This document shows positions 7,206 to 39,704 of a DNA stretch of 39,704 nucleotides, piece by piece (positions within the stretch are counted from its first letter, which is position 1; the number at the start of each line of letters is the position of its first letter). Made by a program: the position numbers and the translations under genes. Below the pieces are notes generated by a model. That model saw nothing but the letters and a program-made list of their open reading frames with translations, had not been told where the DNA came from and did not search any database. Where the stretch lies: sequence record MN510331.1; one strand, given 5' to 3'. This DNA comes from Escherichia phage vB_EcoP_PR_Kaz2018.

Positions 7206-7229
7206 CCATCAACAACCTAAGGAGACTCT

Positions 7230-7487
7230 ATGTCTAAGAACTTAATGTTCAACCGTTATTCCAATACCTTCCACCTGTCTCACAACCCGTTCGCTTGCAT
7301 TAAGCGCAACGAGAAGCTGGGATACTTCGGGAAGGCCGTTAAGCTGTCACCTACAGTCTTCGCTCTGATTACTCCCGGCAAAGCTGAAGAGGCTCGCCAG
7401 AAGCGTGAGACCGACGTACCTGTGGTATACACCAAGTGGCCTCGCGTTCGTCTGTTTATTGAGTTCGTGAAGGAGGTGATCTTATGA
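7230..7487 (+). CDS. Hypothetical protein (85 aa); gene 1.6 position
   Basis: ORF track; RBS AAGGAGACTCT upstream; assignment by position only. Confidence 0.7.
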   Translation: MSKNLMFNRYSNTFHLSHNPFACIKRNEKLGYFGKAVKLSPTVFALITPGKAEEARQKRETDVPVVYTKWPRVRLFIEFVKEVIL

Positions 7488-7930
7488 CTACTTATGATAA
7501 TATGATTATCAAGCTAATCGATATGAACGATGGTAATCCAGACCATTTATATAACTGTTCCTTCAATTGTGCTGGAGTTCCTTGTAACATCTGCCCCGCT
7601 AAGGATGATGACGATATGACCTTAGGTGAAATCCGAGCGATGGACCCGCGTAAATCTCATCTGAATAAACTTGAGGTAACTCCTACAGATGACCAGCCTT
7701 CCACTGAATCAATCGAAGGTGTCACTAAGCCTTCCCATTACATGCTGTTCGACGACATTGAGGCTATCGAAGTGATTGCCCGTTCAATGACTCGTGAGCA
7801 GTTCAAAGGGTACTGCTTAGGGAACATCCTTAAGTACCGCCTACGCGCTGGTAAGAAAGTCAGAACTTGCTTACTTAGAGAAAGCCAGGGCGAAAGTTGG
7901 ATTCTATCAGGAGCTGTTCGACCTGCATAA
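7484..7930 (+). CDS. Hypothetical protein with Cys cluster (148 aa); gene 1.7 position
   Basis: ORF track; strong RBS AAGGAGGTGAT; motif CSFNCAGVPCNICP; function not established from sequence. Confidence 0.7.
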   Translation: MTTYDNMIIKLIDMNDGNPDHLYNCSFNCAGVPCNICPAKDDDDMTLGEIRAMDPRKSHLNKLEVTPTDDQPSTESIEGVTKPSHYMLFDDIEAIEVIARSMTREQFKGYCLGNILKYRLRAGKKVRTCLLRESQGESWILSGAVRPA

Positions 7931-7941
7931 AGGTAAGTGCT

Positions 7942-8169
7942 ATGACGCGTGAAGAACTTCAAGCTGCATCGGCGAAGCGTAGAGCGCAAAGATTTTATCG
8001 TGCATACAAGGCGCTGCGTAAGGGTATGTCGATGTTCAAATTAGGACACAGGGAGTATTGTGATAGCGACCTCCTACCGTTTGCTTATAAGAAGACACCT
8101 AGTCTGATTATCAAGGTAGAGGAGTATGAATATTCTGATGACTGTGTTATGGTGAACCGCTATGCTTAA
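7942..8169 (+). CDS. Hypothetical protein (75 aa)
   Basis: Track ORF 7897..8169 starts on TTG; first ATG at 7942 with AAAGG 8 nt upstream. Confidence 0.55.
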   Translation: MTREELQAASAKRRAQRFYRAYKALRKGMSMFKLGHREYCDSDLLPFAYKKTPSLIIKVEEYEYSDDCVMVNRYA

Positions 8170-8266
8170 CGATGTTCTGTACTTCGGCTTAATTTGCGCT
8201 GGAGTAGGCGCGTTACTTCGCTTAATGTATTGGGAGATAGAGGTGGAATATGGTAAAACCAAGTGA
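8162..8266 (+). CDS. Hypothetical small hydrophobic peptide (34 aa)
   Basis: Hand-translated [34 protein letters not shown]; ATG overlaps the preceding stop. Confidence 0.3.
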   Translation: MLNDVLYFGLICAGVGALLRLMYWEIEVEYGKTK

Positions 8267-8348
8267 GTGGTGCCGTGAGATGTATGAGAAGACGCTCAAC
8301 CCGGACTACATCACGTTATACAACCAATGGAAGGAGCGCGGTTTATGA
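8250..8348 (+). CDS. Hypothetical small protein (32 aa)
   Basis: RBS GGAGATAGAGGTGG upstream; stop overlaps the gene 2 start (ATGA). Confidence 0.35.
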
Positions 8349-8503
8349 CTGAGGTTGAAAAGAAATACATCGTGGAGCTTGAGGGACGCGTTCAGTCCTT
8401 CGAGGTTCCGTTGTACGCAAAGTCTCTTGAAGAGGCTACCCTGAAGTCCCAAGAGTATGAGGACGCTGGGTTTGTGGTCGGACGGATTCGTCCTGAGACC
8501 TAA
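8345..8503 (+). CDS. 2: gp2-like inhibitor of host RNA polymerase (52 aa)
   Basis: Hand-translated ...[35 protein letters not shown] matches remembered T7 gp2 ([34 protein letters not shown]); AAGGAG RBS. Confidence 0.85.
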
Positions 8504-8521
8504 ACTATCACTGTAGGACAG
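8499..8521 (+). promoter_or_regulatory. Phage-RNAP promoter (variant CTGTA at -5 to -1)
   Basis: CCTAAACTATCACTGTA-GGACAG, +1 G at 8516; the gene 2 stop TAA is the TAA of the promoter. Confidence 0.7.
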
Positions 8522-8560
8522 ACGTCCAGTTCGTAACTTTTAAATAGGAGATTTACACCG

Positions 8561-8614
8561 ATGGCTAAAGAGCAACTGAAGACTTTCACCACTCCGGTAG
8601 CTGGTATCGTTTGA
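8561..8614 (+). other. Upstream in-frame segment of gene 2.5 ending at an opal codon
   Basis: ATG 8561 with AGGAG RBS encodes MAKEQLKTFTTPVAGIV then TGA at 8612..8614, in frame with the SSB ORF; resembles remembered T7 gp2.5 N-terminus MAKKIFTSALGTAEPYAYIA. Confidence 0.5.
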
Positions 8615-8623
8615 GCCTTACGC

Positions 8624-9259
8624 ATGGCTGACAAAGCAGACACCAAGTTTAATGATCGTGGTGAGCATAAGGTTAACCTGACTTTCGACCTGAGCAACCC
8701 GAAGGTCCGTAAGATGATTGATGTCTTACAGAAGATTCACGACGATGCGTATGCGAAAGCACTCGCAGACCACGAGAAGAACCCGCCTCAGGTTCAGCGT
8801 GGCAAGAAGCCTATCGAGCCGCGTGAAGGCGATATGCCGTGGATTGAGAATGGTGATGGTACTGTTACCCTAAAGTTTAAATGCTTTGCGTCTTACCTTA
8901 AAGACGGCAAGTCAGAGCCTATCGTATTACGGTTCTACGACACCGATGCTAAGTTAATCCGTGACGTCCCGAATATTGGCGCTGGCTCAAAGCTGAAGGT
9001 CAAGTTTAAAGTCCTGCCGTTCAAGTGGAACGCTGCGACTGGTGCAAGCGTTAAGCTCCAGCTTGAGTCCTGCCTTCTGGTAGAACTGAAGGAGTGGAAA
9101 GGTGATGGTGCTGGTGGCGATGGTGGCTGGGGCGATGATGAAGACCTCGGTACTGGCTACAAAGCGTCAACCGATGGTGACTTCGGTGACGATGACTTCG
9201 GTGATGATGGTTCCGAAGGTGGTGGCGACTCCAACTCTGGTGGCGACTACGACTTCTAA
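8624..9259 (+). CDS. 2.5: Single-stranded DNA-binding protein with acidic C-terminal tail
   Basis: GDMPW..NGDGT, SKLKVKFKVLPFKWNAATGASVKLQLES and tail ...GGDYDF match T7 gp2.5; the ORF may really begin at 8561 (see findings). Confidence 0.9.
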   Translation: MADKADTKFNDRGEHKVNLTFDLSNPKVRKMIDVLQKIHDDAYAKALADHEKNPPQVQRGKKPIEPREGDMPWIENGDGTVTLKFKCFASYLKDGKSEPIVLRFYDTDAKLIRDVPNIGAGSKLKVKFKVLPFKWNAATGASVKLQLESCLLVELKEWKGDGAGGDGGWGDDEDLGTGYKASTDGDFGDDDFGDDGSEGGGDSNSGGDYDF

Positions 9260-9711
9260 TGGCCCAATGGTCTGCAAAACGGGGGCACTCTGTGGGTGCC
9301 TACCGCTCTGGACTTGAAGCCAAGAACCAGCAGTGGCTGGAACATAACGGCGTCAAAGCGGAGTACGAAAGCCATTATATCAACTATGTGATTCCGGCTT
9401 CCGACCACAAGTACACACCAGATTTTATTCTTCCTAACGGTATTATCGTGGAGACCAAAGGTATCTTCGCAGTGGATGACCGTAAGAAGCATCTTCTGGT
9501 ACGAGAACAGCATCCAGAGTTAGACATCCGGTTCGTGTTCTCAAGTTCCCGCTCCAAGCTATACAAAGGGTCTCCTACCACGTATGGCGCATGGTGCGAA
9601 AAGAACGGCTTTAAGTATGCCGATAAATTCATCCCTGTTGAGTGGCTGCGAGAGGCGACTGTACGTCTGCCCTCAGGTATACTCATCCCGAAGAAAGGAG
9701 TTAAGAAATGA
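9259..9711 (+). CDS. 3: Endonuclease I (Holliday-junction resolvase)
   Basis: YVIPASDHKYTPDF, VETKG, DDRKKHLLVREQHPELDIRFVFSSSRSKLYKGSPTTYG match T7 gp3. Confidence 0.95.
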   Translation: MAQWSAKRGHSVGAYRSGLEAKNQQWLEHNGVKAEYESHYINYVIPASDHKYTPDFILPNGIIVETKGIFAVDDRKKHLLVREQHPELDIRFVFSSSRSKLYKGSPTTYGAWCEKNGFKYADKFIPVEWLREATVRLPSGILIPKKGVKK

Positions 9712-10178
9712 GCAAGCAGTTTAAACTGTTAAGTGCTGAGTGTGGCTGGCCTTGTGGGACTATCGTTACCCAGTGTGAGAAGGACCCCCAGCCAGCGATA
9801 GGAATGATTCTAGTTGAGTGCCAGACTCCAGGCACCTACAAACACGGGTCTAAAGGCCACAATACGCAACCTGAGGGAATGTGGGGAGCGTGGGTCTGTA
9901 CTGAACGCCTTGAAGAAATCAAGACAGAAGAGAAACACCAAGTCCTGCCAACTTCGAGCGTACCTCCTGTGACTGTGAAGCGTGAAGTCCTGACCATTGA
10001 TAAAATCCCGGTAGGCTATGCGTTTATCGTCCACGGTAAGCCGGGTGAAGTGTACGTGAAGATTAGTAACTCTCACGTCTTCAACCATAAGTTACTCCAG
10101 ATGCACACCACCGGATGCACACCGCTTCCAACGTCATCTGAACCTCGTAGCTGTAGAGCTGGTGGTGTACAATGGTGA
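9708..10178 (+). CDS. Hypothetical Cys-rich protein (156 aa)
   Basis: ORF track; strong RBS AAAGGAG; start overlaps the gene 3 stop (ATGA); no counterpart in T7 as I recall. Confidence 0.7.
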   Translation: MSKQFKLLSAECGWPCGTIVTQCEKDPQPAIGMILVECQTPGTYKHGSKGHNTQPEGMWGAWVCTERLEEIKTEEKHQVLPTSSVPPVTVKREVLTIDKIPVGYAFIVHGKPGEVYVKISNSHVFNHKLLQMHTTGCTPLPTSSEPRSCRAGGVQW

Positions 10179-10630
10179 GTAAGGTGCAATTCAACCCACG
10201 GTCCCGGACTGACGCTATCTTCGTTCACTGTTCGGCTACCAAGCCAGAGATGGACATCGGGGTAGAGACCATCCGTATGTGGCACAAGCAGCAAGGCTGG
10301 CTGGATGTAGGCTACCACTTTATCATCAAGCGTGACGGTACTGTGGAAGATGGTCGCCCGGTAAATGTCGTAGGGTCACACGTTAAGGATTGGAACTCCC
10401 GGTCAGTAGGCGTCTGCCTTGTAGGTGGAATTGACGCTAAGGGTCAGTTTGAAGCTAACTTCACTCCAGCCCAGATGAACTCCCTGCGCAACAAGCTGGC
10501 TGACCTGAAGGTCCTGTATCCTCAGGCAGAAATCAAAGCACACCATGACGTAGCACCTAAGGCGTGTCCAAGTTTTGACTTGCAACGCTGGCTGTCTACC
10601 AATGAACTGGTCACTTCCGACCGTGGTTAA
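10172..10630 (+). CDS. 3.5: Lysozyme (N-acetylmuramoyl-L-alanine amidase; T7 RNAP inhibitor family)
   Basis: DAIFVHCSATKP, WLDVGYHFIIKRDGTVE, GVCLVGGID, HHDVAPKACPSFD, NELVTSDRG match T7 gp3.5. Confidence 0.95.
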   Translation: MVSKVQFNPRSRTDAIFVHCSATKPEMDIGVETIRMWHKQQGWLDVGYHFIIKRDGTVEDGRPVNVVGSHVKDWNSRSVGVCLVGGIDAKGQFEANFTPAQMNSLRNKLADLKVLYPQAEIKAHHDVAPKACPSFDLQRWLSTNELVTSDRG

Positions 10631-10654
10631 TAAACTCTAAGGGAGAACAACCCA

Positions 10655-10870
10655 ATGATTAAACTTATCGAATTTCTTGGTCGTCTGGTGGTGCGTGGGT
10701 ATCGTCGTGCTGCGGTACTGGAACGAAAGGTAGAAAAGAAGACTGCGGACGGTGCGGCTGATGCTGCTGCTCTGGCTGACAAGCTGACCATAGCGTCACT
10801 GGAAGCTGGCATGAAGGCGCGTCAGGCTGACACCAAAGCTGACCAGTTGGCTCAGTTATTCAAAGCCTAA
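10655..10870 (+). CDS. Hypothetical protein (71 aa)
   Basis: ORF track; RBS AAGGGAGAA upstream; stop TAA lies inside the next promoter. Confidence 0.6.
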   Translation: MIKLIEFLGRLVVRGYRRAAVLERKVEKKTADGAADAAALADKLTIASLEAGMKARQADTKADQLAQLFKA

Positions 10871-10888
10871 ACTATCACCTTAGGGATG
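10866..10888 (+). promoter_or_regulatory. Phage-RNAP promoter, degenerate (CACCTTA), followed by a stable hairpin
   Basis: CCTAAACTATCACCTTA-GGGATG, +1 G at 10883; transcript begins with 10-bp stem 10883..10907 and a U-rich tract. Confidence 0.55.
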
Positions 10889-10935
10889 GGACCATTAGTC
10901 CTGTCCCTTTGTTCGCATTTGTGACTAAGGAGTGA

Positions 10936-12856
<1,921 letters not shown>

Positions 12857-39526: not shown

Positions 39527-39704
39527 TCTCACAGTTCAAGAACCTCAAGTCTCCCCATAGGCCCTCTTTAAGTCCAGACCAAAGGCCCTACCCCAGTCTG
39601 TCATAAGGTTGGACCGATGGTCAAGACTTCAGGTCAACGATAGGTCAAGGCTATGGCTTAGGGAAGGACGATAGGTAGGGGCTATAGGTCTGTCTTTGAG
39701 TCTC
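39527..39704. repeat. Right direct terminal repeat (178 bp)
   Basis: Identical to 1..178. Confidence 0.95.

Follow-up and report, generated by a model that had tools for sequence, protein, structure and literature searches.

The junction between the endonuclease I and lysozyme genes of Escherichia phage vB_EcoP_PR_Kaz2018 (sequence record MN510331.1; the whole stretch of 39,704 nucleotides was analysed and is hereafter referred to as the window) carries an open reading frame (ORF) for which a first-pass annotation, made from the sequence alone, recognised no family. The ORF was described as a Cys-rich insertion at a position where phage T7 has no gene, and its seven cysteines and several histidines were considered to possibly bind metal. 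The locus thus raises the questions of whether the ORF is a genuine gene, to which family it belongs and what kind of function its product is likely to perform. The ORF and its surroundings are organised as follows:

8492..8517, plus strand: copy of the phage RNA polymerase promoter, CTAAACTATCACTGTAGG, located 5' of gene 2.5 and belonging to a direct-repeat family of 10-11 copies
9259..9711, plus strand: gene 3, endonuclease I (Pfam Phage_endo_I, E 1.5e-81; from the ORF list)
9695..9700, plus strand: Shine-Dalgarno sequence AAGGAG, 7 nt 5' of the ATG at 9708 (read from the sequence)
9708..10178, plus strand: the ORF as written, referred to below as gp3.2; 156 aa, from codon 136 onward out of frame with respect to its family
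10161..10174, plus strand: ribosome-binding-site-like GGTGGTG and the ATG (10172) of the lysozyme gene, within the last gp3.2 codons (read from the sequence)
10172..10630, plus strand: gene 3.5, lysozyme/amidase (Pfam Amidase_2, E 9.9e-16)

The identities of the flanking genes and the strong ribosome-binding site, as proposed in the first-pass annotation, were borne out. In the ORF list, gp3.2 extends from the ATG at 9708 to the TGA at 10176-10178 and its start codon overlaps the stop codon of gene 3 (TGA 9709-9711) in the form of ATGA (9708-9711). An overlap of this kind had been ascribed to both ends of the ORF; it holds at the 5' end, but the 3' junction in the written frame is ATGGTGA, an overlap of 7 nt between the lysozyme ATG at 10172 and the TGA of the ORF. 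The ORF is a real coding gene under selection, and its translation is coupled to that of gene 3. Genes 2.5, 3, 3.2, 3.5 and 3.7 are bracketed by the promoter copies at 8492 and 10862, which places the ORF in a middle unit served by the phage RNA polymerase; the copy at 8492 is the nearest one upstream of this unit and the next is a variant at 10862-10886.

Promoter-like repeats of this family (consensus CTAAACTATCACTATAGG) occur at window positions 2467, 5545, 7176, 8492, 10862, 17170, 19991, 20990, 25314, 32590 and 38845, the copies at 8492 (..CACTGTAGG) and 10862 (..CACCTTAGG) being variants. The window also carries a perfect direct terminal repeat of 178 nt (positions 1-178 and 39527-39704), as expected for a T7-like genome.

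Profile searches matched the ORF to PHROG 16385 (E 9.8e-83; residues 1-140 of a profile with 157 positions) and its C-terminal half to PHROG 15211 (E 5.9e-30), both of which are listed as having unknown function. The ORF corresponds to the 'unknown' protein AAZ72978 of the K1F record DQ111067 and to gp3.2 (CAJ29361) of the K1F record AM084414, the annotation gp3.2 being in use in K1F AM084414, EcoDS1, PE3-1 and Dev2. As judged from these matches, the ORF is a member of the already known but uncharacterised gp3.2 family (PHROG 16385/15211). The K1F gene has for years been listed as an ORF of unknown function, and hundreds of related phages carry it. The earlier failure to recognise a family is upheld with respect to Pfam, NCBIfam and PADLOC, none of which gave a significant match for the ORF or its homolog P0001, and does not extend to PHROG; searches of Pfam with 38 diverse members of the family were likewise without significant matches. 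The best sub-threshold profile matches, to Chorion_3 (E 0.086), thymidylate synthase (E 0.24) and Imm11 (E 0.037), all fell far below the cut-offs and were rejected, and a sequence-profile search of the PDB returned only an ETS domain (E 0.81), which was treated as noise. As judged by these searches, gp3.2 is not a member of any of the zinc-finger, HNH or defence-related families tested.

A search of 5.8 billion proteins identified 257 homologs at 64-90% identity, 39-41 kb being the typical size of the longest contigs that carry them; only 17 clusters at 50% identity were recovered when 1.84 billion representatives were scanned in full with HMMER. None of the 257 homologs carries a functional name; the assigned function at this position which, according to the first-pass annotation, would refute its proposal was thus not encountered among them. 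In the literature, the name gp3.2 was found in annotation tables only, and a preprint describing a screen of accessory genes contains neither K1F nor this locus. What the present analysis adds to the known family is the diagnosis of a frameshift, the prediction of two barrels and the finding that one domain stays constant while its heads are exchanged.

The C-terminal domain of gp3.2 is present in 220 GenBank phage records, mostly Kayfunavirus, from Escherichia, Salmonella, Enterobacter, Citrobacter, Shigella, Klebsiella, Cronobacter and Providencia hosts; endonuclease I at 80% identity or above is also present in 220 records, the two sets being counted separately. Within Kayfunavirus the domain looks like a core gene, so that the term 'inserted' is apt for the difference from T7 and less so within this genus. 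The gene directly follows endonuclease I wherever the upstream gene is readable, including the distant relatives P0150, which starts after endonuclease I with an ATGA overlap, and Providencia phage PSTRCR_120. The amidase comes next in all relatives whose contig extends far enough, and gp3.2 overlaps its start in every relative in which it is adjacent; the exception to adjacency is PSTRCR_120, in which a gp3.2-like gene follows endonuclease I and is separated from the endolysin by one extra gene. The gp3.2 relative of this phage has 153 aa and is followed by the extra gene of 117 aa before the endolysin (L034, 1195-2012). HNH homing-endonuclease genes were observed in some relatives between genes 2.5 and 3 or before gene 4 (L008, 2119-2568; L006, 743-940; L005, 2731-3096), and none is present at these sites in the window.

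The written C-terminus departs from that of the family at a single base:

10111..10111, plus strand: extra C in ACCACC, common to the window and DQ111067/NC_007456 only; the last 21 codons of the ORF are out of frame

At 10104-10115 the window and DQ111067 read CACACCACCGGA, and AM084414, EPr2, Bas105, PE3-1 and GA2A read CACACCACGGA; around 10100-10120, the form without the extra C is ACCACGGAT and the form with it is ACCACCGGAT. The extra C is absent from the second K1F record (AM084414), from the intact homologs aligned or inspected and from the other GenBank matches listed, which read ...HTTDA.RF..HLNLV.VELVVYNGK/E in the +1 frame of the window. The last 21 codons in the written frame (GCTPLPTSSEPRSCRAGGVQW), which include Cys137 and Cys149, were found in 0 of 120 aligned homologs. 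The tail that characterises the family (D-A-x-R-F-x-x-H-L-N-L-V-x-V-E-L-V-V-Y-N/D-G-K/E) is missing from the written ORF and is found in the +1 frame at 10113-10179 once the extra C is removed; past this base, the frame gives DAHRFQRHLNLVAVELVVYNGE followed by a stop, which is the family consensus. Substitutions between the window and K1F are distributed over codon positions 1, 2 and 3 as 4/3/16 before 10112 in frame 0; after 10112, the distribution is 10/4/3 in frame 0 and 4/3/10 in frame +1. When the corrected C-terminal domain was searched with tblastn against 50,697 phage records, the K1F RefSeq entry (the DQ111067 copy) was the only match listed that needed two pieces. These alignments indicate that the missing family tail is an artefact or a mutation and not the mark of another family. 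The corrected gp3.2 has 157 aa, ends in ...HTTDAHRFQRHLNLVAVELVVYNGE, terminates at the TAA at 10180-10182 and overlaps the lysozyme gene by 11 nt. Programmed frameshifting at ACCACC was considered and rejected, because the family without the extra base reads straight through. The metagenomic relative P0133 (67 aa) is a natural deletion derivative in which head residues 1-47 are joined to an out-of-frame ...GGVQW, in the same wrong frame as the tail of the window.

The presence of the extra C in the window can be viewed in the light of its relation to the two independent K1F records. The window aligns position for position with DQ111067.1, with 1,875 substitutions (4.7%) and zero indels, even over 4.8 kb of non-coding DNA that is 4.9% divergent. 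The substitutions lie mostly at third codon positions and create no internal stop, and thus look natural. Over 7208-12676, DQ111067 differs from AM084414 by 3 substitutions and by single-base indels at 7856, 8610, 8630, 10111, 10292/10297 and 12631. The window agrees with AM084414 at the compensating pair 10292/10297, within the lysozyme gene, and has the length of DQ111067 wherever an indel is uncompensated. The window therefore looks like another K1F-like sequence projected on the coordinates of DQ111067, for example as a reference-guided consensus, and such a projection would cause the indels peculiar to DQ111067 to be inherited by the window. The indels at 7856, 8610 and 8630 touch the end of gene 1.7 and the start of gene 2.5 (211 vs 232 aa). 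The primase/helicase ORF (gene 4, 10939-12699, 586 aa) carries the DQ111067-specific extra G at 12631; on removal of this base, gene 4 ends in ...GSWENNDF and a stop and matches the 566-aa gp4A of AM084414, so that about 25 terminal residues of the annotated product are out of frame. The corrected tail is acidic and ends in Phe, like that of T7 gp4.

With the tail restored, gp3.2 resolves into two modules joined by a linker:

9708..9929, plus strand: N-terminal 'type A' head, aa 1-74; predicted SH3-like beta-barrel, pI 5.3, fast-evolving, 100% identical to K1F
9930..9977, plus strand: Pro-rich linker, ...HQVLPTSSVPPVTV, aa 75-90; conserved in the long forms (from alignments; low pLDDT)
9978..10182, plus strand: conserved C-terminal domain; frame 0 as far as 10112, frame +1 from there up to the TAA (10180-10182) with the extra C removed; pI 9.2
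10053..10112, plus strand: invariant core motif Y.K.SNSH.FN....QMHTT, aa 116-135; R139 and F140 follow in the +1 frame

The C-terminal 70 aa form the constant part of the family and stand alone as a protein of 74-76 aa in GA2A, SH3, Dev2 and many Salmonella Typhi phages. Within them, Y.K.SNSH.FN....QMHTT...RF is invariant across all the relatives, down to about 30% identity. About ten unrelated heads were found on the same C-terminal domain. The type A head of the window (GWPxGTIVTKC...) is present in 55 GenBank records, type B (TCKDLxVGTxYRF...) in 27 and type C (MSKTYRVLNT...) in 4, and at least six further heads occur in P0125, P0126, P0130, P0131, P0136 and P0149/P0150. Two heads (A and B) precede the C-terminal domain in P0117 and P0121, and in-frame deletions that remove the head and keep the C-terminal domain were identified in the metagenomic sequences P0124, P0140 and P0142. 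The N-terminal part of the extra gene of PSTRCR_120 is the head that is fused to the C-terminal domain in metagenomic P0149; its occurrence as a separate gene in the one and as a fusion in the other suggests that heads move between separate genes and fusions. The window itself has a mosaic breakpoint at the boundary of the linker and the C-terminal domain: 9708-9994 is 100% identical to K1F and all 40 gp3.2 differences from K1F lie in the C-terminal half, 9995-10177 being of the GA2A/SH3 type (97.4% identical to those short-form genes) and the whole ORF 91.7% identical to that of K1F.

The two modules also differ in the selection that acts on them. Among eight type A genes (Nei-Gojobori method), dN/dS of the C-terminal domain is 0.02-0.19 with dS of 0.15-1.3, and dN/dS of the head is 0.25-0.6 at measurable divergence, values greater than 1 being seen in two very close pairs with few changes. 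Low dN/dS in the presence of varying synonymous sites indicates a constraint on the protein and not on the DNA, and a nucleotide-level cause for the conservation of the C-terminal domain, such as a promoter or an RNA element, was rejected on the ground that synonymous sites vary freely (dS up to 1.3). The head, as judged by these ratios, evolves under relaxed or diversifying selection.

AlphaFold predicts two SH3-like small beta-barrels joined by the Pro-rich linker, with a five-stranded barrel topology in both modules. Structure prediction had been proposed in the first-pass annotation as a check; for the head, its outcome speaks against the metal-binding idea, in that an SH3-like barrel and not a zinc finger is predicted with high confidence. 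The C-terminal domain is not confidently predicted in the full-length model (pLDDT 30-45) and rises to 81 only in a model of the domain by itself, built on a more diverse alignment; an all-beta barrel is predicted for it. A fold search of BFVD with the C-terminal domain returned members of the family and uncharacterised small phage proteins only. A comparison of the type A head with the C-terminal domain using hhalign (probability 0.06%) gave no indication of an internal duplication.

Small barrels of the SH3-like kind serve to bind peptides, proteins or nucleic acids. This property, together with the absence of matches to catalytic families, favours a non-enzymatic binding protein, and gp3.2 is on balance probably a middle-operon gene of K1F-type Kayfunavirus encoding such a protein in two modules, a constant docking module and an exchangeable head. 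The phage RNA polymerase would transcribe gene 3.2 within the middle (DNA-metabolism) operon, and its translation would be coupled to that of endonuclease I upstream and lysozyme downstream. The true product would be a protein of 157 aa with an acidic N-terminal SH3-like barrel, a Pro-rich linker and a basic C-terminal SH3-like barrel, of which the C-terminal barrel would represent the constant functional core and the head an exchangeable and deletable part. We infer that the protein most likely acts by binding and not by catalysis or Cys-metal chemistry; the basic barrel may dock on a conserved partner, either a nucleic acid or a protein of replication or transcription, and the head may add a variable, lineage-specific interaction. 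The invariant polar cluster with its two histidines could equally be a small catalytic or metal site.

The composition of the written ORF is what brings metal binding into consideration. Its seven cysteines (positions 12, 16, 23, 38, 64, 137 and 149) amount to 4.5% of the residues, more than in any other of the 40 annotated coding sequences of the window that were counted (0.84% over the whole proteome), and K1F-type heads have five cysteines including a C-x3-C. Since the tail is out of frame from the extra C onward, however, Cys137 and Cys149 are frameshift artefacts, and among 121 aligned sequences C23 alone is invariant, C12 being retained in 31%, C16 in 5%, C38 in 34% and C64 in 12%; a single cysteine is present in the N-terminal domain in 50 of the 121 and the five-Cys pattern of K1F in 5. 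A structural metal site is defined by ligands that are conserved as a set, and no such set of at least three to four Cys/His ligands, as in zinc-binding proteins, is present. The histidines H46, H109, H123, H127 and H133 are conserved in the close family and a revised version of the proposal could call upon H123 and H133 of the C-terminal domain, which are invariant across all the relatives, but H109 and H127 vary in the distant ones and the generic, weak fold matches lend it no strength. Thus, of the earlier suggestion the count of seven cysteines stands for the written frame, while two of them are artefactual, one is invariant and an SH3-like barrel is predicted for the head; a metal-binding protein, in either version, is considered quite improbable. 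The same motif has also to be weighed as that of a small nuclease or a mobile gene resembling homing endonucleases, of the HNH or beta-beta-alpha-Me type, given that SNSHVFNHK..QMH contains H, N and H residues and that HNH insertions are frequent in this part of the genome, relatives having HNH genes nearby. The spacing from H to N is, however, far too short, no HNH match was obtained from Pfam or NCBIfam in the 38 diverse members, the predicted all-beta barrel lacks a beta-beta-alpha metal finger, and a fixed position with genus-wide presence is unlike the sporadic occurrence of homing genes. The HNH-like reading is thus already disfavoured, and a nuclease of this kind appears extremely improbable.

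Two further explanations take the position and the variability of the locus as their starting points. The ORF might act mainly in cis, as a coupling device that brings ribosomes to the start of lysozyme and thereby determines how much gp3.5 is made, with the protein being of secondary importance; gp3.5 has two roles, lysis of the cell and inhibition of the phage RNA polymerase. The lysozyme ribosome-binding site and ATG lie inside the last gp3.2 codons in relatives with an adjacent amidase, natural deletions take the head and always spare the 3' part, and the final residue toggles between K and E, a change that is synonymous in lysozyme codon 2. The low dN/dS (0.02-0.19) over the whole 70-aa domain with freely varying synonymous sites nevertheless points to a constraint on the protein, SNSH.FN....QMHTT...RF is invariant even in PSTRCR_120, in which another gene separates gp3.2 from the endolysin, and in T7 the coupling of gene 3.5 to gene 3 is direct, with no such ORF in between, all of which make a primarily cis role unlikely. 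A counter-defence or host-takeover adaptor, in which the C-terminal domain would engage a conserved host or phage component and swappable heads would recognise variable host factors at an arms-race hotspot, has a better, though still doubtful, claim. It is consistent with the replacement of the head by unrelated ones, its duplication and its deletion among otherwise collinear phages, with the raised dN/dS of the head (0.25-0.6, and greater than 1 in two very close pairs with few changes) relative to the C-terminal domain (0.02-0.19), with the narrowness of the family (17 clusters at 50% identity among 1.84 billion proteins) and with the extra head-like neighbour gene of PSTRCR_120, the same head being fused to the C-terminal domain in P0149. 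Relaxed constraint alone could, however, explain the variation of the head, and a near-invariant, genus-wide C-terminal domain is unusual among accessory anti-defence genes; the literature search returned no published anti-defence role, and PADLOC matched 0 families, which is a weak test in that PADLOC covers defence and not anti-defence proteins. It is thus only tentatively suggested that the gene 3/3.5 junction of Kayfunavirus-like phages serves as a diversification cassette, in which the near-invariant basic docking domain is joined to about ten or more unrelated and quickly exchanged heads, with gp3.2 as a modular adaptor that would bring in variable host factors or be brought to them, for example in neutralising defence or in takeover of host targets. 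If true, gp3.2 would represent a new kind of phage effector, composed of small beta-barrels in tandem.

Three points are of some value for work on the locus. The Cys-rich appearance of the ORF is in part artefactual and goes back to a single-base error or variant apparently inherited from DQ111067, a record in which the C-terminus of the primase/helicase is likewise out of frame. What is conserved is the C-terminal barrel of 70 aa and not the Cys-bearing head, and it is this unit that knock-outs or pull-downs should target. The swapping of heads marks the locus as a candidate hotspot of host interaction in a genus that is used in therapy against K1 E. coli and Salmonella Typhi.

Comparison with known systems places gp3.2 at several distances. 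At the level of the fold, the predicted models resemble SH3-like barrels such as eukaryotic SH3, FeoA, the C-terminal domain of DtxR/IdeR, ribosomal L2, the KOW domain of EF-P and Tudor, with no sequence similarity and no shared functional motif between gp3.2 and these domains. Position 10706 of T7 is both the end of gene 3 and the start of gene 3.5, so that, unlike the window, T7 has no intervening ORF, as had been stated in the first-pass annotation; T7 and the window are alike in having the same flanking genes, translationally coupled, in a class II transcription unit. The nearest counterpart is gp3.2 of K1F (CAJ29361/AAZ72978), which has the same coordinates, an identical head and a homologous linker and C-terminal core, and lies likewise between genes 3 and 3.5; the tail-shifting extra C of the window is present in the DQ111067 record of K1F and absent from AM084414. 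The short-form gp3.2 proteins of 74-76 aa (GA2A, Citrobacter phage SH3, Cronobacter phage Dev2 and Penshu1; PHROG 15211), which are devoid of the head and the linker, correspond to the C-terminal domain of the window, contain its invariant motif and likewise overlap the start of the lysozyme gene.
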